From a virus (Duplodnaviria; Heunggongvirae; Uroviricota; Caudoviricetes), in the IMG/VR virus record IMGVR_UViG_648276649_000002: DNA of 28,032 nt; one strand, 5' to 3'. Shown piece by piece: positions 6,618 to 22,971 of this stretch. The notes below the pieces were generated by a model. It did not search any database and was not told where the DNA came from. It saw only the letters and a program-made list of their open reading frames with translations. The position numbers and the translations under genes are program-made. The number at the start of each line of letters is the position of its first letter. The first letter of the stretch is position 1.

Positions 6618-6671
6618 TTTGCTGTCCTGTAAATTGGGTTCTGGCGCGGTATCCCGCGCCGTTCAGATACA

Positions 6672-7187
6672 TCAGAGGCCGAGGGCGTTGCGGTGCGCTT
6701 CCATCAGGTCCACACCGTCCACAATTTCCACCATGTTGATAAGGTCCACTTCATAGAGCACCTCACCATTTATAGTCAGCTTCGCGTAGCTGTTGGTACT
6801 GGTCACTTTGGTGGTGTTGCTTTCGCCCGTCTTCCACTCTCCGGAATCCACTTCTTTGTGACGTCCACGCACCACAAGCTCCACAGCCTGCACTTCCCCG
6901 GTATCGTCACGCTGGATAGAGCCGGTAAAGCGCAGCTGGATGCCATCCACCGTAGCTTTGCCCATCTGTTTAAACAGCAGCAGTTCAGTACCACCAATGG
7001 AAAATTCTGTGTCCAGCGCACTGTCATCAAGCCCCAGATCCACATCCACTGCACCCGGCATTCCGCCGCCGCGATACTTCTCATATTTGCGGGTGAATTT
7101 CGGCAGCGTCAGCGACTCAACGATCCCCTGCCAGTTGTTCCCGTCATTAAACAGGTTCAGGTGTTTTAATTTGCGTGGTAAAGCCAT
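6672..7187 (-). CDS. FII: tail tube protein FII
   Basis: 171-aa ORF, size and position of P2 gpFII. Confidence 0.85.
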   Translation of the reverse strand: MALPRKLKHLNLFNDGNNWQGIVESLTLPKFTRKYEKYRGGGMPGAVDVDLGLDDSALDTEFSIGGTELLLFKQMGKATVDGIQLRFTGSIQRDDTGEVQAVELVVRGRHKEVDSGEWKTGESNTTKVTSTNSYAKLTINGEVLYEVDLINMVEIVDGVDLMEAHRNALGL

Positions 7188-7196
7188 GTTGTCCCC

Positions 7197-8036
7197 TTAC
7201 GCGCTGACCTGGCTGGAGAAATTCACCAGGTACTGATCGGTGATGCGCTGACGCAGCATCAGGTTTTCAAGTGGCGGCACTGGCGTGTAGTCGTAATCGA
7301 TGGTGAGTTTTCCGGCTTTCAGGGTGTCTTTGTCGTTCACCGACTCGTCCAGCCAGCAATCACCACCAATGAGATACCCCTGACTTACCAGGCTGCGCAT
7401 TTTGGCGCGGATACCCTCGATAATGTCGCGCGCCAGCGACGGGTTCAGCGGTTTGTCCACCGCCCACATGTGCGCTTCTGCCATTGTGTCCGTCAGCACC
7501 TGCGCCGTGCGAGTGTAGTTTTCGAAAGCAAAAAGCGGATCATCGCTCAGACAGCGGGAACCCCAGAAGCGGAAACCATCCTTGCGCACAAGCGTGGTGA
7601 CGTCGTTCTGGTTAAGCAGTCCCGCATCGGTTGCCGGGTCCTGCAGATCCCAGAACACATCAGCAGAAATTCCGGTGACACCGTTCACGCCCACGTTGGA
7701 CAGGCTTTTGTGCCATCCGGTCTGCTCGTCAATTTTGGCGCGCAGACCAAGCGCTCGGGCGGTGGCATATGCCGTTGCTTCGGCATTCAGCACCGTGTCC
7801 CAGCCAGTAAAGTCAGGCCAGATCAGCATCCCTTCGCGCTGGCTAAAGTTTTCACGGTAAGTGATCGCCTCCTGTACCGTCTTGCAGCCATACGCTGACA
7901 GGTAAGCAAATCCACGCAGGCTTTGCGCCACGCTCAGCAACTCAGTAGCTACCGCCTTGGTGTCGTGGCCTGGCACGCCGAGAATGCGCGGTTTAACGCC
8001 GAGCTGTGACTGGGCAGATAATCCAGTTGGTTTCAA
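7197..8036 (-). pseudogene. FI: tail sheath protein FI, 5'-truncated; retains about the C-terminal 280 of about 396 aa
   Basis: strong match to P2-type sheath from [11 protein letters not shown] onward to [12 protein letters not shown]; no N-terminal third and no ATG (the track start is TTG). Confidence 0.8.
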
Positions 8037-12381: not shown

Positions 12382-13032
12382 TCAGCGGCTGTCATTGCGC
12401 AGTCTGCGCTCCAGCTGCTGTTTGTCTTTTTTCACGCCACAGCGGGGATCGAGCTGTAACGCATGGTTGAGATGATTAAGGGCGGAAGCCGGATTGCTTT
12501 CACTCAGGACAGCGCCAATCGCTTTATGCAGACGCGCCCGTGACTGGTCCGGCATATCCAGACCGTCTGTCAGCTCCAGCGTCTGCAGCAACAGTTCGGC
12601 ATCAAAGCCGGTGGCGGCAAGCATTGCGCTCTGCGCTGCATCTGCCATTTCCTCTGCCAGCACGGTCTGCACGTTGCGGTTACCCAGCGGCATCACCCAG
12701 CCATGACGCAGGGCATGACGCCCGATCTCCAGCGCCCCGGCATAATCTCCGGCATCAATGCGCCACAGCATCACGTACATCAGCACGTCATCCTGTTGAG
12801 CGCCTCCGGCAGCCAGGACGCCCTCCGCCCAGGCGGCATATTTCGGCAGCAGCTCCACCTTGATTTCCGCTTTTTTCACCGTGGACTGAACGCCCTTGAG
12901 ACGGCGGCGGTCTTCCGCCAGTTGCAGCAGCATCAGGTCATAGCCCGACGCGTGGCGAACGCTGCCGCCCTCGCGGGCGGCCTGTTCAGCCTGAACGCGC
13001 AGGCGATGCTGCCGTGCGGGACTCAGGCTCAT
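12382..13032 (-). CDS. M: terminase small (endonuclease) subunit M
   Basis: 216-aa ORF between N and L as in P2. Confidence 0.8.
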   Translation of the reverse strand: MSLSPARQHRLRVQAEQAAREGGSVRHASGYDLMLLQLAEDRRRLKGVQSTVKKAEIKVELLPKYAAWAEGVLAAGGAQQDDVLMYVMLWRIDAGDYAGALEIGRHALRHGWVMPLGNRNVQTVLAEEMADAAQSAMLAATGFDAELLLQTLELTDGLDMPDQSRARLHKAIGAVLSESNPASALNHLNHALQLDPRCGVKKDKQQLERRLRNDSR

Positions 13033-13035
13033 GGG

Positions 13036-14094
13036 TTACGCTCCGGCTTCTGCTGCGGCGGCGCTGAAATCGCCAATCTGGATGTTTTCCACCAGCGCAG
13101 CGCAGCGGTAGTCCTCAACCACATAGGCTTCGTTAACAGATTCAAAGTTTTCAATCCGGTCACGTTTCGGGTTGTCGATAACTGAACGGCGGCGGGTGTC
13201 TTCCTGCCAGTAGATGGACAGGTTATCCAGACGGGTGATCAGCAGCGCATTCGGCGGGAAGAACGGCGCACGCACGGCCTGCAGACCGCCCATGCGTTTC
13301 TGACTGATAATCATATCGGCTGCCAGTTTTTCACTGTTTTCCTGCTCTTTGTTGACCAGCGGGAAATACTTGTCAGACAGCAGTTCACGACCGCAAATCA
13401 CCATCAGATCGTCATCATCCTGGTAGACCACGTCGATAAGCTCATTGACCGCATCCATCACTACAGCGTCCAGGTTGGCATATTCGCCACCTTTCCCGAC
13501 TTTCACCGCACCCGGTGTGGTTTCGCCGCCCGTGGTGGTGCTGCCCATGACGTGATCCGGTGCATCCTCACGGATTTTCTGCAGCCAGCCTTTGTTCACA
13601 TCCTGCAGCAGCGGGTTTTCACTACGGTTGGAGGTTTTCGCACGCTTCACGCCGTTAAAGCCGATCATGATGCGGTCCAGTGCCTGACGTTTCACGATGG
13701 CGTCACGGATACGCACCTGGAAATCCTGAAACTTCGCCCACAGGTCCAGCTTCGCGTAGGTCAGCACCGTGTCAAAGTTGGTCTGCTCGCATTTATATTC
13801 CACATCGACCATCAGCGTCGGATCGACAGGTTCACGCTCTTTCGCGGTGGTGTCAGTGGTTCCGGCAATGGTGCTGCCAACACCCAGCCCCAGCAACTGA
13901 CCGGACTGCTCAGTCACTGGCGTGACGTTAATCAGCGTCAGGAAGGCGGCGGACTGCTGGATCTGGTCTTCCAGCGTCTGCTGCACAGACGGCTCCACAG
14001 TGAATTTGCTGGACAGTTCTTCAACTGCCACACCGTTCAGACGCGCCAGCTGCTGCAGGTAAGCGTTAAAAGCAAAGCGGGTATTCTTCTTCAT
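13036..14094 (-). CDS. N: major capsid protein N
   Basis: 352-aa ORF, P2 gpN size and position. Confidence 0.9.
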   Translation of the reverse strand: MKKNTRFAFNAYLQQLARLNGVAVEELSSKFTVEPSVQQTLEDQIQQSAAFLTLINVTPVTEQSGQLLGLGVGSTIAGTTDTTAKEREPVDPTLMVDVEYKCEQTNFDTVLTYAKLDLWAKFQDFQVRIRDAIVKRQALDRIMIGFNGVKRAKTSNRSENPLLQDVNKGWLQKIREDAPDHVMGSTTTGGETTPGAVKVGKGGEYANLDAVVMDAVNELIDVVYQDDDDLMVICGRELLSDKYFPLVNKEQENSEKLAADMIISQKRMGGLQAVRAPFFPPNALLITRLDNLSIYWQEDTRRRSVIDNPKRDRIENFESVNEAYVVEDYRCAALVENIQIGDFSAAAAEAGA

Positions 14095-14110
14095 CGGGTT
14101 TTGTGCTCCA

Positions 14111-14944
14111 TCAGCAATTGGTCAGAGTGTCAGCGGGGGCGTTACCGCCTGTTGCACGCTGGCGGTAGTCCTGGCGGCTGTCTTCATGACTCAGCTTGTC
14201 CACCAGTTCGTTAAAGGCGGTCTGCTGTGCCTGCAGGGCAGTCTCCAGCTCAGACAGGCGTTCTTCCTGCTCAGACAGGGATTTTTCGGTGCGTGCGCTC
14301 AGGTTCTGCTGCTCAGTGGCGACCAGCTCCACGGCCTTATGCACATCAGAGAACCGGGCGTCATCGGACTGCTCTTTTTTGGTAAACAGCGCCGTGACGC
14401 GGGCAAACAGGGACGGTTTGTCGTCCTGGACTTCTTCCAGTTCGATCACCGTTTCCTCTGCAGCGGTAAAAAGATTGGCGGGATTCTGCTTGCGGTTTGC
14501 CAGCGGGTTATGGGCTGCACTGGCGCTGAATGTCAGCATTTCCGTACCCAGACTGGCGGGATCATCAGTGGCAGCCAGGCCGACCAGATAGGCTTTGCCC
14601 GTATCAGCGAACTTCGGGCTGACTTCCATAGAGGTGAATAATTTCTGGCCTTTTTTCACCAGTTCCACCAGGGACTCCGTTGGCTCAACGTCGGCATACA
14701 GCGCCATCTTGCCTGCCAGCGGACCTTCCGTGATTTCTTCAGCAAACAGCGCCGTCACCTTGCCGTAGCGGTTAAAGGTGCTGTCCGGCAGATAAGACTT
14801 GATGTGCTCAAGGTTAATCAGCGCGGTATACACCGCCGGGTTGTAGCTGGCTGCCATCTGTTCCAGCCATTCACGCTGGATTTCGCGTCCGTCGGTGGTG
14901 GCACCTTCCACCCCGATGCGAAAACGCTTTGCTTTCACTGTCAT
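14111..14944 (-). CDS. O: capsid scaffolding protein O
   Basis: 277-aa ORF with acidic coiled-coil C-terminal half; divergent from P. Confidence 0.85.
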   Translation of the reverse strand: MTVKAKRFRIGVEGATTDGREIQREWLEQMAASYNPAVYTALINLEHIKSYLPDSTFNRYGKVTALFAEEITEGPLAGKMALYADVEPTESLVELVKKGQKLFTSMEVSPKFADTGKAYLVGLAATDDPASLGTEMLTFSASAAHNPLANRKQNPANLFTAAEETVIELEEVQDDKPSLFARVTALFTKKEQSDDARFSDVHKAVELVATEQQNLSARTEKSLSEQEERLSELETALQAQQTAFNELVDKLSHEDSRQDYRQRATGGNAPADTLTNC

Positions 14945-15086: not shown

Positions 15087-16853
15087 ATGAACACCACACT
15101 GACACCCGCAGATCTCGATCCCCGTCGGCAGGCCATGCTGCTGTACTTTCAGGGATACCGCGTCGCCCGCATTGCTGAAATGCTGGGCGAGAAAGTTGCA
15201 ACCGTTCACAGCTGGAAAAAACGCGACAAGTGGGGTGACTATGGGCCGCTGGATCAGATGCAGCTCACCACCGCCGCACGCTACTGCCAGCTCATTATGA
15301 AGGAGCACAAAGAAGGGAAAGATTTCAAAGAGATTGACCTGCTGGCGCGCCAGTCGGAGCGCCACGCGCGGATCGGCAAGTTTAACAATGGCGGCAACGA
15401 AGCCGACTTAAACCCTAACGTCGCCAACCGCAACAAAGGCCCACGCCGTCAGCCGGAAAAGAATGTTTTCACCGATGAGCAGATTGAGAAGCTGGAAGAA
15501 ATCTTCCATTCCTCCATGTTCAACTACCAGCGCCACTGGTGGGAAGCCGGAAAAACCAACCGCATCCGCAACCTGCTGAAGTCACGCCAGATCGGCGCGA
15601 CCTTTTACTTTGCCCGTGAAGCCCTGATTGACGCTCTGCTTACCGGACGTAACCAGATTTTCCTTTCTGCCAGTAAGGCACAGGCCCACGTCTTCAAACA
15701 GTACATCATCGACTTTGCCAAAGAAGTGGAGGTGGAGCTGAAAGGCGATCCGATGGTGCTTCCCAACGGGGCCACACTGTATTTCCTCGGAACCAATGCC
15801 CGCACGGCCCAGAGTTACCACGGCAACCTGTATCTGGATGAATATTTCTGGATACCGAAATTCCAGGAGCTGCGCAAAGTGGCTTCCGGTATGGCTATTC
15901 ACAAAAAATGGCGACAAACCTATTTTTCCACGCCATCCAGCCTGACCCACAGTGCTTATCCGTTCTGGTCCGGTGCGCTGTTCAACCGTGGACGCAACAA
16001 AGCTGACAAGGTGGACATCGACCTGTCCCACAGCAATCTGGCCCCCGGCCTGCTGTGCGCAGACGGGCAATACCGCCAGATAGTCACCGTGGAAGATGCG
16101 GTGCGCGGCGGCTGTAACCTGTTCGACCTCGACCAGCTACGCATGGAGTACAGCCCGGACGAATACCAGAACCTGCTGATGTGCGAGTTCGTGGACGATC
16201 TCGCGTCCGTGTTCCCGCTCAGCGAACTGCAGGCGTGCATGGTGGACAGTTGGGAAGTCTGGACCGACTTTCATGCACTGGCCCTGCGCCCGTTTGGCTG
16301 GCGCGAGGTGTGGATCGGTTATGACCCGGCAAAAGGTACGCAGAACGGCGACAGCGCCGGATGCGTGGTGGTGGCACCGCCAGCCGTGCCAGGCGGTAAG
16401 TTTCGCATTCTTGAGCGTCACCAGTGGCGCGGGATGGACTTCCGCGCCCAGGCGGACGCCATCAAAAAACTGACCGAACAGTACAACGTGACCTATATCG
16501 GCATCGACTCGACAGGTGTCGGTCACGGGGTTTACGAGAACGTGAAAGCGTTTTTTCCAGCCGTCCGGGAGTTTGTCTACAACCCCAACGTTAAAAACGC
16601 CCTGGTACTCAAGGCCTACGACATTATCAGCCACCGCCGTCTGGAGTTTGACGCCGGACACACCGACATAGCGCAGTCATTTATGGCAATCCGTCGCGCC
16701 ACCACCGCCAGCGGCAACCGCCCGACCTATGAAGCCAGCCGCAGCGAAGAAGCCAGCCACGCCGATCTGGCCTGGGCAACGATGCACGCTCTGTTTAACG
16801 AACCGCTGCAGGGCGAATCCGCCAATACCAGCAATATTGTGGAGATTTTTTGA
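15087..16853 (+). CDS. P: terminase large (ATPase) subunit P
   Basis: 588-aa ORF; N-terminus MNTTLTPADLDPRRQAMLLY is gpP-like. Confidence 0.9.
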   Translation: MNTTLTPADLDPRRQAMLLYFQGYRVARIAEMLGEKVATVHSWKKRDKWGDYGPLDQMQLTTAARYCQLIMKEHKEGKDFKEIDLLARQSERHARIGKFNNGGNEADLNPNVANRNKGPRRQPEKNVFTDEQIEKLEEIFHSSMFNYQRHWWEAGKTNRIRNLLKSRQIGATFYFAREALIDALLTGRNQIFLSASKAQAHVFKQYIIDFAKEVEVELKGDPMVLPNGATLYFLGTNARTAQSYHGNLYLDEYFWIPKFQELRKVASGMAIHKKWRQTYFSTPSSLTHSAYPFWSGALFNRGRNKADKVDIDLSHSNLAPGLLCADGQYRQIVTVEDAVRGGCNLFDLDQLRMEYSPDEYQNLLMCEFVDDLASVFPLSELQACMVDSWEVWTDFHALALRPFGWREVWIGYDPAKGTQNGDSAGCVVVAPPAVPGGKFRILERHQWRGMDFRAQADAIKKLTEQYNVTYIGIDSTGVGHGVYENVKAFFPAVREFVYNPNVKNALVLKAYDIISHRRLEFDAGHTDIAQSFMAIRRATTASGNRPTYEASRSEEASHADLAWATMHALFNEPLQGESANTSNIVEIF

Positions 16854-17875
16854 TGAAAGAACATATCGCGCCAGACGAAACCGTAACTGCAGAAGAAACT
16901 AAAAAATCCGTTGCGGAGGCTTTCAGCTTTGGTGATCCCATTCCTGTACTGGACCGCCGCGAACTGCTGGACTATGTGGAATGCGTACAGATGGATCGCT
17001 GGTATGAGCCGCCCGTCAGCTTTGACGGACTGGCGCGCACCTTCCGCGCCGCCGTGCACCACAGCTCCCCGATCAGTGTTAAGCGTGACATTATCAGCAG
17101 TACCTATATTCCACATCGCCTTCTCAGCCAGCAGGCATTTACCCGTTTTGTGCAGGACTATCTGGTTTTTGGTAACGCCTACCTGGAGAAACGCACGAAC
17201 CGCTTTGGTGAAGTTATTTCGCTGGAACCTGCACTGGCAAAATACACCCGGCGCGGACTTGACCTTGAAACATACTGGTTTGTGCAATACAGCCTGACGA
17301 CACAGCCGTATCAGTTCACAAAAGGTAATGTCTTCCACCTGATGGAGCCGGATATCAACCAGGAGATTTATGGTCTGCCGGGTTACCTTTCTGCCATTCC
17401 GTCAGCTCTGCTCAACGAATCCGCCACGCTGTTCCGCCGCAAGTATTACATCAACGGCAGTCATGCAGGCTTCATCATGTACATGACCGACGCCGCGCAG
17501 AACCAGGAGGATGTAAACAACCTCCGTAACGCGATGAAAAGCGCCAAAGGTCCAGGCAACTTCCGTAATCTGTTTATGTACTCGCCTAACGGCAAAAAAG
17601 ACGGGCTTCAGATTATCCCGTTATCAGAAGTCGCAGCGAAGGATGAGTTTCTGAATATCAAGAACGTGAGCCGGGACGACATGATGGCAGCACACCGAGT
17701 GCCGCCGCAAATGATGGGGATTATGCCGAATAATGTTGGTGGATTTGGGGATGTGGAGAAAGCGAGTAAAGTTTTTGTGAGAAATGAACTGATCCCGCTG
17801 CAGAAGAGATTATTCGAGATAAATGTATGGCTAGGAGAAAATGTCATTACTTTCCAGCCATACAACTTAGATTAA
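16850..17875 (+). CDS. Q: portal protein Q
   Basis: 341-aa ORF overlapping the P stop; gpQ position and size. Confidence 0.85.
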   Translation: MMKEHIAPDETVTAEETKKSVAEAFSFGDPIPVLDRRELLDYVECVQMDRWYEPPVSFDGLARTFRAAVHHSSPISVKRDIISSTYIPHRLLSQQAFTRFVQDYLVFGNAYLEKRTNRFGEVISLEPALAKYTRRGLDLETYWFVQYSLTTQPYQFTKGNVFHLMEPDINQEIYGLPGYLSAIPSALLNESATLFRRKYYINGSHAGFIMYMTDAAQNQEDVNNLRNAMKSAKGPGNFRNLFMYSPNGKKDGLQIIPLSEVAAKDEFLNIKNVSRDDMMAAHRVPPQMMGIMPNNVGGFGDVEKASKVFVRNELIPLQKRLFEINVWLGENVITFQPYNLD

Positions 17876-17880
17876 TACTA

Positions 17881-17910
17881 TTACAGACACTTTCGTGAAA
17901 GTGTCTGTAA
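17881..17910. other. perfect 13-bp stem-loop between convergent Q and the toxSAS-like gene
   Basis: ttacagacacttt cgtg aaagtgtctgtaa; no clear U-tract on either strand. Confidence 0.35.
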
Positions 17911-17923
17911 TCAAAAAATGAAA

Positions 17924-18928
17924 TTATTCTTCTGAATCATCATAAACATCCATTCCTTCGGTCTGATTTCTAATATAAGAAGCCCCCATAGAATTAGCAA
18001 TCGCAGTCCGAATTAACCCTACATGAGTGAAAAACACCCCTAACCTAGCACGCTTTAACTCAGACTCATCATCATAGTCATCTTCATTACTTATAATTCT
18101 TCTAACCATTGCCTTATCTTCGTCAATAGCCGAAGGTAGCCCACTCTTTAAAGCGTCAATACACTCACCTACAGTTATAATTTTATTTTTAATTAATTCA
18201 GAAAGCAAATCATCATAATTTTCATCATCAGATTTATTATCAGGTGGTAATTCACTTGCAGCTATCATTTTCAGCAATTCTACGTCAAGCATAGTTCCTC
18301 TATCTAGTCTGCTTGTCTCAACATACCCCTCACGCTCTGATAACACTCTTTCAAATTCGAAATCAACGACTTCAAGCAAAGCAGATACTCTATTAATTGC
18401 TCGCCTAAGAGGAAGTGGAACACTTTGCTCTTTTTTGTATTGCAGTTTATGAGATGCTGCAGCCCAAATATGCTGAGAAAGCGTTCGTATTTGCACCTCC
18501 ACTTTCATATTTTTAAAATCACTAAAGGATGGAACTCTTAGCCATTCTTCTGGAGGTTGTATTACATAATGATGAGATTGGTACCCAAATCTATCCTCAT
18601 CCAGTTCATCAAGTTTATTCTCTTGCTTCAAAATAATGAAATGTTCTTTCAGACAAGATATAACCTTTTCAACATCTCGCTTAAATAGCATTATTAATCG
18701 GATTCCAACATAATCATCCAAGTCAACTATTGACTCAATCTTTAGAGGTTTTCGGTTATCCTTATTAATAATAGAACTTAATGTTTTGACACGGCTTTCA
18801 ATTGGAACCCCTAAAGACAATTTATTCTCCGACAAAATAACATCAATTTGCTCAACCATAACTCGTCTGAACAATTCCGCAACTGAGCCGTAAATTGAAT
18901 GCTGTTCTTTTAATTCTTCGTCTGTCAT
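17924..18928 (-). CDS. RelA/SpoT-like nucleotidyltransferase (toxSAS-like) with uncharacterised acidic C-terminal domain
   Basis: motifs RVKTLSSIINK, DYVGIRLIM, GYQSHH and EVQIRTLSQHIWAAASHKLQYK in the N-terminal half; AT-rich; RBS-like AGGT upstream. Confidence 0.8.
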   Translation of the reverse strand: MTDEELKEQHSIYGSVAELFRRVMVEQIDVILSENKLSLGVPIESRVKTLSSIINKDNRKPLKIESIVDLDDYVGIRLIMLFKRDVEKVISCLKEHFIILKQENKLDELDEDRFGYQSHHYVIQPPEEWLRVPSFSDFKNMKVEVQIRTLSQHIWAAASHKLQYKKEQSVPLPLRRAINRVSALLEVVDFEFERVLSEREGYVETSRLDRGTMLDVELLKMIAASELPPDNKSDDENYDDLLSELIKNKIITVGECIDALKSGLPSAIDEDKAMVRRIISNEDDYDDESELKRARLGVFFTHVGLIRTAIANSMGASYIRNQTEGMDVYDDSEE

Positions 18929-19044
18929 CTATCTTACCTAACTTATATAAATGAATCAGATATAAAACATTGCATAATTTTAATTCAAGTGGACAACATA
19001 TAAATTATCCGATCTAAACCACTTAAACAACAGGTTTTGCGCGC

Positions 19045-19065
19045 GCTCGTATCCCCGCCACGCCT
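19045..19065. other. candidate cos (cohesive end) site
   Basis: - strand reads GGCGTGGCGGGGAtacgagcg; first 13 nt match my recollection of the 186/P2 cohesive end. Confidence 0.45.
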
Positions 19066-19443
19066 GCCCGCTTTATGCAGTGGTTTTCATGCACATGCAT
19101 GACATGAGCAAAAGCCCGCCAGTTCTGGCGGATCTGAGCAAAGACGATCCTCAATCGATCATGCGATTTCATGCAGCATAGTCATGCACTGTCAAGGAAG
19201 TGAAAATCCGTATCTGAATGGCCACTTGAAAAACGGATCATACGGGTTTACAAAGATGAATGTTCGCTGTGAACGGGAAGCGGAAGTTAACTTTCAGATA
19301 ACATAATCCATATGCACGAGAACCTCTAAAATAGAATGGGACACCTAAGCGGGGTACTTACAACGATTCTTTCCATATTCACAGTTAACACTCTGTTTGG
19401 CGTATTTTTATTCAAATAGCAAACACCAATAAAAGGAGTTTCC

Positions 19444-19779
19444 ATGAACAATATTCCCCCTATACCACAGTTAGGAATTTATGTCTCAAAAATCGATCCC
19501 ACCCTACGTATCACTGTAACCGATGTTGATATTGTTGATGGTGAGGATGATTCTCCTGATGATGAATTGTTTTATTTAGTCCACTGGATCGAGGGGGAAG
19601 ATGAAAGTGATATGACAGCAATGGGATTTGAGCTAGACCCAGTAGAGTGGCAGGCTTTCGTTGAATCTGAGCAATTAGTGTTTGAGCGTGATCCGTACAT
19701 GGATTCAATCCCCGAAAATTCAAACTTGGCAAAGATTCGGGATTTTCTCATGAAGACTAAACAGAATGATCATTCGTAA
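19444..19779 (+). CDS. hypothetical small acidic protein
   Basis: 111-aa ORF with AAAAGGAG 7 nt upstream of ATG; very Asp/Glu-rich; sits where P2 carries old/tin. Confidence 0.6.
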   Translation: MNNIPPIPQLGIYVSKIDPTLRITVTDVDIVDGEDDSPDDELFYLVHWIEGEDESDMTAMGFELDPVEWQAFVESEQLVFERDPYMDSIPENSNLAKIRDFLMKTKQNDHS

Positions 19780-19971
19780 GTGTAAGCATCCATCAGGAAA
19801 ATGGTTTTGTAAGTGAATCATCAACTTTTAGAGAGTCTCAGACACTCCCACTTCTGCTTCTGACACAAAGCGGACGATCACTTATCAAAATAACCGCCCA
19901 CCTTACGCCTTATTTCACTCATTGCCCAAACTAGCCCCCATCAGAATGAATCCTCCTGGGGGCAACATTTC

Positions 19972-20205
19972 TTAATGCAGCCAGCTGTCGTCCTCCCACA
20001 CCTTCTGCATAATTTTCATCACTTGTTTTCTTTCTTCATCCAGTTGCAGTCCGGTTAGTTCCACACCGTTAGAGCTACCTTTGCGAATGCGAATTACCGT
20101 TTTGGGATACAGGGGGCGCAGATTGCGGTAAAGCTCGGATTCAAGTGCGTCCAGGGTAGACTGGCTAATCTTCTGCTCTTTATCGATCATTATTTCAATG
20201 CGCAT
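19972..20205 (-). CDS. DinI-family protein (Tum C-terminal-domain-like)
   Basis: 78-aa product from ATG 20205 (MRIEIMIDKEQ...VWEDDSWLH) resembles DinI; GAGGTGA upstream. Confidence 0.8.
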   Translation of the reverse strand: MRIEIMIDKEQKISQSTLDALESELYRNLRPLYPKTVIRIRKGSSNGVELTGLQLDEERKQVMKIMQKVWEDDSWLH

Positions 20206-20215
20206 AAAAGTCACC

Positions 20216-20404
20216 TCAGCTGATGACATCCATTGAGCGGTTGTATTCGTGGCTTCTGATTTTTGCCATGAGTTCATCAGTCAATTCAGAAACCCACTGC
20301 AGAGCCAGCCCCTTCTCTTCATCACTACACTCACTAGCCGCTACAAGCTTAAGAAAAAAATCAATGCGCTGGAGCTTCAAAGACTCCAAAAAATAGTCCT
20401 GCAT
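20216..20404 (-). CDS. small protein co-transcribed with the DinI-like gene; possible Tum N-terminal part
   Basis: 62-aa ORF with GGAGG 5 nt upstream of ATG 20404; its stop overlaps the DinI RBS. Confidence 0.5.
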   Translation of the reverse strand: MQDYFLESLKLQRIDFFLKLVAASECSDEEKGLALQWVSELTDELMAKIRSHEYNRSMDVIS

Positions 20405-20445
20405 CTTTCCTCCTATGACACCAAAACAATACTGTATGCATAACC

Positions 20446-20461
20446 ACTGTTTATATTTACA
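20446..20461. promoter_or_regulatory. LexA box (SOS operator)
   Basis: aCTGTttatatttACAGta fits CTGT-N8-ACAG with AT-rich spacer, 42 nt upstream of the small ORF start. Confidence 0.6.
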
Positions 20462-20556
20462 GTATATAATAATCTTACTGATGTAAAACGTTTTTTTACG
20501 TTCATCGGCCTGATATGCCTGGTATTATTAAGAGCACGAATTGTTAACCCGCGTAA

Positions 20557-22971
20557 TTAATACAGGTTCCGCCACTTATCATCTTCCTTCAGACGCTGGT
20601 TCCGATAGAAGATACGCAGGCCTGCTCCTGACGGAATACTGCCGCCGCGAAGGAGCAAATCGACTTCTTTCTCGCTGCCATCAAATCCCCTGGACTTCAG
20701 TTCATAGACGAGCTGCTGTCGCTGATGGTCTGTAATTCGCTGTTTGTAGTCTTTACGCCGTTTCGGTTTCACCTGGCGTAACCTTGCAGCCAGTTCCCGG
20801 CGCTCTTTTTTGCTCATACTGTGCAGGTAATCGTGCAACTCTTTGTCATTCATACGGGTAATATCCGTTCTGGAGTCCCCATCAGCTGATTTGTCTTTCC
20901 CTTGTTGGTTCAAATTTTCAGCAAGGGGACAGTTATTGCCACGAGTCCAAGGGGCGCAAGCGCCCTGGTCGGCTGCCGCCTCCTGAACGTCAACGGCCTT
21001 ACGAACCATTTTCCACTTCACTGCATGAGTGCAGATCTTGCCCTCTGCAATGGGTGACCAGATGCCATAAATACGAATACCGTGATCACCATAGGCGGTC
21101 GGCTCTTCGTTGATTTCATAAGCGGTTCTGATCAAGTGATATTTGCGGGGAACCAACACGCCGCCCTGCTTCATAATGTAGGTGGCAAAACAGCCAGCAT
21201 CAGCAGCAGCCAGAATGGCATCAAGACGCGGATCATCCAGTACCGGCGCACCTGCTTTTTTGTCACCCTGCTGCCTTGCCGCCTGACCAGCCAGCAATCG
21301 CAGTTCACGGTAAGCCTGACGCCCCGGAATGCCAAAGAAGCGGAATTGCTGAACACGATGCAGAGACGCCCAGGCATTAACGTATTCAGCGTTATCACGC
21401 AGGGATTTACCCGTTTCCTTGCTGATCTCGCCAGCCAGACCACGCCCGTCAATGTTCTTACTGATGTATTTCGCGATGTAGCTTGTCGGCGTTCCTTTGC
21501 GCGGGTTAATCAGCTCAGACTTAAAGCGTGGCCCCGTGTTATTGCCCAGTTCCTCGCGGTCTTCACGGATGGCAAACTTACGCAGTAATGCAGTGATGGC
21601 GCGGCGGTCTTTTTTACGCATGAAGCACATGAGATGCCAGTGCACAGTACCGTCATGATGCGGCTCAGCCACCCGCACGCCATACCACCGCAATCCGGCT
21701 TTGTGCATCGCCTTACGAAATGCAGCAAACATGCCGACCAGATAATCACTGCTTTGTCTTACCGTCGCATTTGTCCAGGTCGGGTTTGGTCTGCCGTTAT
21801 TGAGCGTGGAATGGAAACGTGACGGACAGGTGATGGTGTAGAAAACGGCGCAGTCACCGCGCATTTCCGCGATAAGCTCCAGACCTTTAACGCAGGCCAT
21901 CATCTCATTGCGGCGATGTGCCGGGTTGCTGCTGCTGGCGTTTACCACATCTTCCATATCCAGCGTGTCTCCGTCTTCGTTCACCAGTTCATGAGAACGG
22001 AAAAACTCCAGCGACTTGCGGCGCTGCTCACGTTTATGCGTCACTGCTTCATAGCTGACATAGGGAGATGCTTTTTTGCTGACCAGACAGACAGCACGCA
22101 ACTGCTCTTCCCGCCATTCGCAACGCATCTTCCACAATTTTCGATACCACCAGTCGGCGCAAAGCATACGTGCCAGCGAACCCGGTATGAGTTCATAGGG
22201 CACAGGTTTGCGGCGGTTTCTTTTCCGACGAAGTTTCTCAAACGCAGGCGGGATAACATCCAGACGCAGGGTTTCCGCAGCCACCTTTTCCCATGTCTTG
22301 CGGATTTCTTCTGGCTTAACGTCATCGGTGGCGTACAAATCACCACAAGCGGCCTCAAGACACATGCTCATATGCGCTGCTACCAGGGTGGACAGGCGTT
22401 TCACCTGATCCTGGCTCATTTCAGGCAGGATCAGCAGCCCCTCCAGCCCTTGATGGCTTGCCATAAAACGGAAAGAAACAGATAGCTGACTGTCACGTAC
22501 ACAATCCAGTCGCTCCAGACATGGCTTAATCGTCTCACGCAAATAGCGGGAATAAGCCTTTGGCCTGCCCAGGCTGCTGAAGTATTCGATACGTTGCATC
22601 AGCGGCTTGCTGATATGAGAAGGCTGGGCGCTGACATCTGCCAGAATGACCATGTCCGGGTTAAAACGCTGCTGCTCATGCGCCAGCTTTGCCCGGCTAA
22701 TGAGCTTATCCTGCTCCATTTCGCGCTGGACAGGATCACGGGATTCATTAAAGAAATAACGCTCCCAGACCTGCTCACTCAGTGCCTCGCGGCGCAGTTG
22801 TTCCTGCTCGTTATCGGCAGCGTACAGAGTGATCAGGTTTGAAAGTGCAGACTCCGGCGCAACTTCCGCCGGATCCAGATAAGGGTTAATGGCCTTTTTC
22901 GGGCCGTTCCATGAAAATGCTGCGGCAGCCTCGTTAAAGCCGCTAGAGTTGCTCATATCGTCATGACTCAT
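20557..22971 (-). CDS. A: replication initiation protein A (rolling-circle nickase)
   Basis: 804-aa ORF, P2 gpA-like size and position; overlaps the dam stop. Confidence 0.9.

Follow-up and report, generated by a model that had tools for sequence, protein, structure and literature searches.

A predicted cos site of the Fels-2 type between accessory genes in an Escherichia coli P2-family prophage

A short resemblance to the cohesive end of phage 186, lying among apparent cargo genes, raised the question of whether a stretch of viral DNA (IMG/VR record IMGVR_UViG_648276649_000002, analysed over its full 28,032 nt and hereafter called the window) holds the site at which a phage genome is cut for packaging. 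An earlier note on this DNA had proposed a candidate cos site at this point, and a nick-anchored, ungapped alignment to the annotated cos junctions of P2, 186, PSP3 and P4 bears the proposal out. From comparison with related phages, we consider it highly probable (about 0.9) that positions 19039-19190 represent the cos signal of a Fels-2-type (Felsduovirus-like) P2-family prophage in an E. coli chromosome.

The prophage, a member of the P2 family in E. coli, runs through the window in the opposite orientation to the P2 map, with M, N and O on the minus strand (12382-14944), P and Q on the plus strand (15087-17875) and, after Q, a small-alarmone-synthetase-like (SAS-like) gene, cos, a 111-aa ORF, DinI and gpA. 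The packaging and replication genes that frame the locus are as follows:

12382-13032, minus strand: small terminase, P2 gpM homologue, 216 aa (Pfam Phage_term_smal, 2.8e-40)
15087-16853, plus strand: large terminase, P2 gpP homologue, 588 aa (Pfam Terminase_5, Terminase_6N and Terminase_6C)
16850-17875, plus strand: portal, P2 Q homologue (Pfam Phage_portal; RefSeq annotation)
20557-22971, minus strand: replication endonuclease, P2 gpA homologue (Pfam Phage_GPA, 3.5e-128), the outer boundary of the accessory-gene hotspot discussed below

Both cognate terminase genes (the gpM and gpP homologues) are present with full-length domain matches, and we infer that the gpP homologue is the nuclease/ATPase acting at cos and the gpM homologue the subunit that recognises it. 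The candidate site lies in the interval from the gpA side to the portal gene Q, beside the Q-P and O-N-M packaging and head genes. The locus is 99.6-99.7% identical (over window positions 17800-20600) to one in E. coli YZLc4-1, where the prophage is inserted beside rcdA, its genes are intact from int to tape measure in the extent viewed, and the RefSeq annotation agrees with the gene order. The window ends short of the integrase end and the distal tail genes, and the completeness of this copy was judged from that near-identical relative.

On the minus strand, positions 19064 to 19046 read as the 19-mer GGCGTGGCGGGGATACGAG, preceded by cataaagcgggca (in longer context, catgaaaaccactgcataaagcgggca) and followed by cgcgcgcaaaacc. 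By homology, the cut would be placed as follows:

19046-19064, minus strand: 19-mer GGCGTGGCGGGGATACGAG, predicted 5'-protruding cohesive ends
between 19065 and 19064, minus strand: predicted top-strand nick
between 19045 and 19046, plus strand: predicted bottom-strand nick

The coordinates first proposed, 19045-19065, had the right site and were one base too wide at each end. The claimed match of the first 13 nt to the cohesive end of 186 is exact against the annotation of NC_001317 (positions 1-19, GGCGTGGCGGGGAAAGCAT), with 15/19 positions identical overall. The remainder of the 19-mer had been described as diverging; this is true against 186, but the divergence is not random, since the whole 19-mer is identical (19/19) to the 'putative cos site' that opens the record of Salmonella phage SEN8, a record whose end is exactly the base equivalent to 19065. 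The SEN8 genome announcement quotes the same 19-mer as cos, identified during annotation (PMC5427200). An identical 19-mer is found in Fels-2 (Felsduovirus) and in Klebsiella P2-like phages and prophages. The records of 186 and PSP3 (Eganvirus) annotate 19-nt cohesive ends with cut positions and share the first 13 nt with the window, differing over the last 6 nt (AAAGCAT in 186 and PSP3, ATACGAG in the window). The P2 cohesive end (GGCGAGGCGGGGAAAGCAC) is identical at 14/19 positions; P2 and P4 differ from the window in having A rather than T at position 5 of the 19-mer and a different 3' part.

For a wider sample, IMG/VR was scanned with a degenerate core pattern, giving 119 distinct cos regions that were reduced to 111 representatives at <90% identity. 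The 19-mer of the window was the commonest type in this sample (44/119 segments), and the exact 33-nt core was found in 25 species-representative genomes across the Enterobacterales (Enterobacter, Citrobacter, Klebsiella, Raoultella, Serratia, Pantoea and others). Across the 111 viral representatives, positions 1-12, 15 and 18 of the 19-mer were kept and the remaining positions varied. The last bases of the 19-mer and the base that follows (+18/+19, window 19046/19045) co-vary across the aligned phages, in the combinations ...CGAG followed by C in the Fels-2 type and ...GCAT or ...GCAC followed by T in the 186 and P2 types, a pattern that P4 breaks with ...GCAC followed by C.

The earlier note had named alignment to the P2 and 186 cos regions as the check on its proposal. 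Circular junctions were built for P2, 186, PSP3, P4 and SEN8 and anchored at the first G of GGCG, and the nick-anchored alignment ran free of gaps through P2, 186, PSP3, P4, SEN8, Fels-2, a Klebsiella phage, ENT90 and LPM4. The approximately 55-bp core of P2, P4 and 186 around the 19-mer is present in the window, with 43-45 of 56 core positions identical in P2, 186, PSP3 and P4 and 54-55 of 56 in SEN8 and Fels-2. Identities to the window were:

Fels-2: 19-mer 19/19; 56-bp core 55/56; 152-bp island 132/152
SEN8: 19-mer 19/19; 56-bp core 54/56; 152-bp island 139/152
186: 19-mer 15/19; 56-bp core 44/56; 152-bp island 95/152
PSP3: 19-mer 15/19; 56-bp core 45/56; 152-bp island 92/152
P2: 19-mer 14/19; 56-bp core 43/56; 152-bp island 78/152
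P4: 19-mer 14/19; 56-bp core 43/56; 152-bp island 88/152

A 55-bp cos core common to the P2-family phages and P4 is credited to Ziermann and Calendar (1990) in passages of later papers (PMC3931495, PMC5694545, PMC9122126).

The conservation extends beyond this core and ends sharply on both sides:

19039-19190, minus strand: conserved cos island, 152 bp, -126 to +25 relative to the predicted top-strand nick

In a BLAST search of phage records, the sole conserved intergenic block was 19037-19190, present in 83-93 records of Klebsiella, Salmonella, Yersinia, Escherichia and Erwinia P2-like phages that included Fels-2, SopEPhi, RE-2010 and SEN8. The island was found in 1301 of 5426 complete E. coli genomes, the large majority of which match 19037-19190 only and neither flank. 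Information content across the 111 representatives is about zero upstream of about -126, high in discrete patches within the island and zero after +25, and these edges coincide with the breakpoints of homology among E. coli prophages (19190 in strain C2; 19039 in BL21(DE3) and many others). The signal is asymmetric, with 126 bp on the gpA side of the top-strand nick and 7 bp past the 19-mer on the portal side.

The island could be a genuine cos by descent that is now a relic, the prophage being defective or never induced so that nothing is cut. Deleted derivatives occupy the same chromosomal site in BL21(DE3) (truncated cII and gpA) and IAL7254 (cII fused near cos), gpA is frameshifted in strain C2, and the window itself is without the int end, all of which would suit a relic. 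We nevertheless regard this as unlikely, since the island has kept all of its conserved elements in the form most common in the family, the M, P, Q and A ORFs are of full length and their domain matches complete, and the intact genes of the YZLc4-1 relative count against it.

In this cos signal of the Fels-2 type, a heptamer stands directly 5' of each predicted nick:

19065-19071, minus strand: GCGGGCA heptamer, directly 5' of the predicted top-strand nick, near-invariant in the aligned reference phages
19039-19045, plus strand: GCGCGCG heptamer, directly 5' of the predicted bottom-strand nick, symmetry partner of GCGGGCA

Each predicted nick is thus 3' of a heptamer of the form GCGSGCR (GCGGGCA^GGCG on the minus strand, GCGCGCG^CTCG on the plus strand), and P2, P4, 186 and PSP3 share these nick-flanking heptamers. 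In the 111 representatives, a conserved patch (AAAGCGGGCA) abuts the predicted top-strand nick. GCGGGCA lay inside the search pattern, so its conservation in IMG/VR is partly ascertainment; positions +19 to +25 (CGCGCGC) lay outside the pattern, and of these +20 to +24 are near-invariant and +19 and +25 partly conserved. The paired heptamers give the site a partial two-fold symmetry, as expected for a nuclease that nicks both strands.

It is conceivable that the packaging island is real and that phages of the Fels-2 type nick it elsewhere, with an overhang of another length or register than the 19-mer drawn here. Over its last 6 nt the 19-mer is unlike those of P2 and 186, and published assignments for this variant have all been made by analogy, the SEN8 cos having been assigned 'by annotation' (PMC5427200). 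The ends of the related Smp131 were set 'by analogy', and those of SEN1, SEN4 and SEN5 likewise. A search of the full-text literature for experimentally mapped ends of a phage with the exact 19-mer found none, the SEN8 announcement being the only match. On the other hand, the spacing of the heptamers is exactly that of P2 and 186, with no indel in any of the 111 representatives or the reference phages, and both terminase subunits are clear homologues, which makes shifted nicks improbable. The records of Cartapus, Midge and PHB48 end inside the conserved block but not at the nick, and were judged uninformative on the ends.

The remaining patches of the island consist mainly of short TGCAT boxes and a palindrome, all of them on the replication-gene side of the predicted cut:

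19075-19079, minus strand: extra TGCAT at -15 (14/111 representatives; also in ENT90)
19089-19100, minus strand: proximal TGCAT boxes at -29 and -35, with ATGCA at -36, then a conserved GAAAACC
19116-19131, -67 to -52: palindrome CCGCCAG tt CTGGCGG, the local form of the family-wide GCCAGnnCTGGC (-65 to -54)
19161-19188, minus strand: distal phased boxes, TGCAT at -124 (19184-19188), TGCAT at -111 (19171-19175) and CGCAT at -101 (19161-19165)

The proximal boxes, with TGCAT at -29 in 109/111 representatives and ATGCA at -36 in 81/111, are found at matching offsets in P2 (-29), 186, PSP3, SEN8 and Fels-2. Of the 111 representatives, 77 have TGCAT at -124, 70 have it at -111 and 37 at -101; in the window these distal boxes are spaced 13 and 10 bp apart. 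Their offsets are the same in P2, 186, PSP3 and P4: 186 and PSP3 resemble the window in having TGCAT at -124, -111, -101 and -29, and P2 and P4 in having boxes at -124/-123, -111, -101 and -29. Six boxes in 130 nt compare with 0.25 expected (Poisson P = 2.8e-7), and every other 130-nt stretch of the window holds three or fewer. The IHF consensus WATCAANNNNTTR was absent from the island, even with one mismatch allowed, and an Rfam search over 17800-20600 returned nothing credible.

The palindrome had been placed about 70 bp from the site; it is real and lies 52-67 bp from the predicted top-strand nick, or about 70 bp from the start coordinate used at the time. Its offset is equal in 186, PSP3 (both with cgccag-ag-ctggcg), P4, SEN8, Fels-2 and ENT90. 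P2 is without it, so the palindrome is not universally required. When its arms are paired in register, 71% of cells are complementary, compared to 25-32% with the partner slid, but most of this signal is conservation of the sequence itself with few compensatory changes, and there is therefore no evidence in it for a folded structure. The roles of the boxes and the palindrome are suggested by their conservation.

The block might instead be conserved for a protein, the 49-aa ORF at 19023-19172 (minus strand), or as a transcription terminator of the early operon, with no part in packaging. Several phage records do annotate a 'hypothetical protein' over the block, and on the minus strand the palindrome is followed by CTTTTG and scores terminator-like, facing transcription from the gpA side. 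The pattern of conservation, short phased boxes and a palindrome held gap-free from the nick with no codon periodicity, speaks against a protein, and the block is shared with the satellite P4, which has homology with P2 in cos and nowhere else (PMC9122126). As a terminator the palindrome is unimpressive: its RNA hairpin (-13.3 kcal/mol, z = -1.27 vs shuffled sequence) is not unusually stable, and the T-run present in Fels-2-type phages is missing from the 186 and P4 types, so that a terminator role would be lineage-specific at best. We regard both versions of this explanation as very improbable, and a terminator role for the palindrome could in any case be compatible with cos function. The 49-aa ORF lies entirely over the cos island, and calls over the equivalent block in other records (one of them 'DinI') are probably spurious, the conservation resembling boxes of a DNA site and not a coding sequence.

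A cos signal should also be single in the prophage, and the earlier note had taken a better match elsewhere as grounds for giving up the proposal. None was found within the 28-kb window by pattern and profile searches. The 13-mer GGCGTGGCGGGGA occurs exactly once, and the two other sites that match it with 2 mismatches both stand without the flanking context. An nhmmer profile of the 111 viral cos regions gave one match in the window (19191-19039, minus strand; E = 2.2e-44), with the next-best matches, at E >= 0.29, being palindromic self-matches. A profile limited to -130 to -11, and so excluding the bases used to collect the set, still gave E = 5.8e-30. That the 13-nt match is a chance GC-rich one, a suspicion to which the shortness of the match first noted lends itself and nothing more does, can be set aside given a unique profile match at E = 2e-44 and 152 bp of positional homology.

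The genes on either side of the Fels-2-type cos signal differ from one relative to the next, and the claim of cargo on both flanks holds, with the SAS-like gene on the portal side and the 111-aa ORF and DinI on the replication side:

17924-18928, minus strand: RelA/SpoT-domain (SAS-like) gene, 334 aa, portal-side cargo (Pfam RelA_SpoT, 7.6e-20)
18977-19004, minus strand: sigma-70-like promoter match upstream of the SAS-like gene, just outside the island; weak, 9/12 consensus positions
19444-19779, plus strand: 111-aa ORF, gpA-side cargo (phrog_17127, 2e-70)
19972-20277, minus strand: DinI-family gene (Pfam DinI, 1.2e-22), a common accessory gene of Fels-2-type phages

The SAS-like gene has a candidate defence match in PADLOC (PDC-S33, 1.8e-16) and is annotated 'GTP pyrophosphokinase' in RefSeq, and the closest solved structures to its product are RelQ/YjbM (2e-16). 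Residues 45-168 of the protein make up a RelA_SpoT synthetase domain, and its C-terminal extension, approximately 165 aa long, has no Pfam match. A comparison with solved structures gave no match to fused toxSAS proteins such as CapRel, and no ORF between cos and Q fits a partner or antitoxin. Among the E. coli matches listed, the gene occurs only in YZLc4-1, C2 and SCU-485. The 111-aa ORF had no match in Pfam or NCBIfam. DinI is also annotated in Fels-2, SEN8 and Klebsiella phages. Its mechanically called ORF runs to 101 aa from an ATG at 20277; in relatives the annotated protein has 77 aa (234 nt), and the true start is probably internal, near 20205.

Two E. coli relatives show the flanks changing separately. 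Strain C2 shares the SAS-like gene and the island with the window (99.3% identity over 17001-19190) and is without the 771-bp module 19191-19961 that holds the 111-aa ORF, the junction falling exactly at 19190. At its locus (NC_012971.2, 873160-881821), BL21(DE3) shares the 111-aa ORF, DinI and the island (99.7% identity over 19039-21000), and in its portal-side bay a retron (St85-family RT and effector) replaces the SAS-like gene. The window itself pairs the SAS-like gene with the 111-aa ORF. The two bays assort independently among related E. coli prophages, with junctions at the island edges 19190 and 19039, and the genes that lie between gpA and gpQ and adjoin cos vary among these prophages.

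Further observations were made on these relatives and on the SAS-like gene's other end. The BL21(DE3) prophage has lost DNA between cII and gpA. E. coli IAL7254 (6670-7309; window-equivalent approximately 19347) carries another deletion derivative of the same prophage type, in which a truncated cII is joined to sequence 157 bp from the cos island and the whole replication region is removed. A match annotated 'phage regulatory CII family protein' was considered as a P4-like satellite and rejected, being a deletion derivative of the same prophage type. The Q and SAS-like genes are convergent, with stops 48 bp apart (17876-17923), and comparison with C2 brought out a 32-bp inverted self-match there, probably a shared bidirectional terminator; a simple terminator scan made no call at 17876-17923.

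The same arrangement (A, small ORF, DinI, cargo, cos, cargo, Q) is found in SEN8, Fels-2 and the Klebsiella phages, with different cargo on both sides. On the Q side, where the window has the SAS-like gene, SEN8 has a hypothetical gene and an HNH endonuclease, and Fels-2 and the Klebsiella phages have a 1.7-kb gene of the AIPR/Abi type. In 186 and PSP3, by comparison, cos lies approximately 180 bp from the portal stop with a terminator and no cargo gene between, and the palindrome has no T-run. Accessory or defence genes also flank cos in P2 (old/tin) and P4 (gop/beta/cII) (PMC9122126).

The earlier note had described cos as displaced about 1.2 kb from the Q stop by a toxSAS-like insertion. 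The distance from the Q stop (17875) to the 19-mer is indeed 1170 bp and the interval does hold the 334-aa RelA_SpoT ORF, but such a distance is ordinary in the family. P2 (167 bp) and 186 (176 bp) are short by comparison with IMG/VR loci in which the end of Q could be located, where the median from cos to the Q stop is 1386 bp and a P2- or 186-like distance (<300 bp) occurs in 25 of 86. The distance from the A stop to cos has a median of 957 bp in IMG/VR loci compared to 1492 bp in the window. A gene stands between cos and Q in Fels-2, SEN8 and the Klebsiella phages alike, and the 1170-bp distance is typical, displacement being the normal state in the P2 family.

Taken with what is established for P2 and 186, these elements suggest the following course of events. 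After induction and replication, the gpM/gpP terminase would, by homology with P2 and 186, recognise the island, probably through the phased TGCAT boxes and the GCCAGnnCTGGC palindrome. The large subunit would then nick each strand once, directly 3' of its GCGSGCR heptamer and 19 bp from the other nick, to give a linear genome with 19-nt 5' single-stranded ends (GGCGTGGCGGGGATACGAG and its complement) that would re-anneal after injection. The packaged genome would open, after its left cohesive end, with the SAS-like gene and close, before the right one, with the 111-aa ORF. Everything outside the signal would be free to vary, and because of this the intervals from cos to its nearest essential genes, Q and A, may act as accessory-gene bays. 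P2 DNA maturation is said to proceed by site-specific cleavage that can use closed circular monomers, work reportedly due to Pruss, Wang and Calendar in 1975 and Bowden and Calendar in 1979.

A wider reading can be proposed tentatively, as a possibility rather than as the expected outcome: that the P2-family signal is a 152-bp bipartite element in which TGCAT boxes (-124/-111/-101 and -36/-29) bridged by GCCAGnnCTGGC form the binding array of gpM, and that its base-pair-sharp edges at +25 and -126 are preferred junctions for exchange of two independent defence-gene bays between phages. Recombination primed at cut cos ends is one conceivable route for such exchange, recombination inside the shared island another. 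The literature searched held no description of the box architecture or of independent assortment of two bays at this resolution, though the boxes may already have been treated in the cos paper of 1990.

A variable locus of P2-like phages was reportedly treated by Odegrip in 2006. The interval between gpA and gpQ adjoining cos is a P2-like hotspot of antiviral systems, in which 18,150 E. coli gpA-gpQ loci resolved into 1,650 gene arrangements (Rousset et al., 2022; PMC9122126). The cosL-Q interval had been noted earlier as an insertion hotspot by Dodd and Egan (1996) and Nakayama (1999), according to a passage in PMC5694545. The window has the same locus and the same logic as the hotspot of Rousset et al., with variable accessory genes abutting cos, and differs from it in nothing essential; it adds one combination, with the SAS-like gene on one side and phrog_17127 and DinI on the other.

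The site is an ordinary cos in a published arrangement, both it and the gpA-cos-gpQ hotspot being already known, and the finding leaves accepted ideas unchanged. Its main value is for annotation, in that it predicts the ends of the packaged genome at 19065/19064 and 19045/19046 and puts the SAS-like gene and the 111-aa ORF at the termini of the virion chromosome, one in each half of the known P2 defence hotspot. Because of that position, both genes are reasonable candidates for an anti-phage or lysogenic-conversion role; for the SAS-like gene this putative role draws on the RelA_SpoT domain and the PDC-S33 match. The 152-bp island could also serve as a minimal packaging cassette for cosmids used with Fels-2-type helpers. 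Finally, a number of IMG/VR loci (L044, L045, L052, L092, L028 and others) are contigs of 12-13 kb that carry the cos core with no Q or A homologue; they have the size of a P4-like satellite and several 19-mer types (the P2 type, ...CTACGAG and ...AGAGCAT), which suggests that these putative satellites track the cos variant of their helpers.
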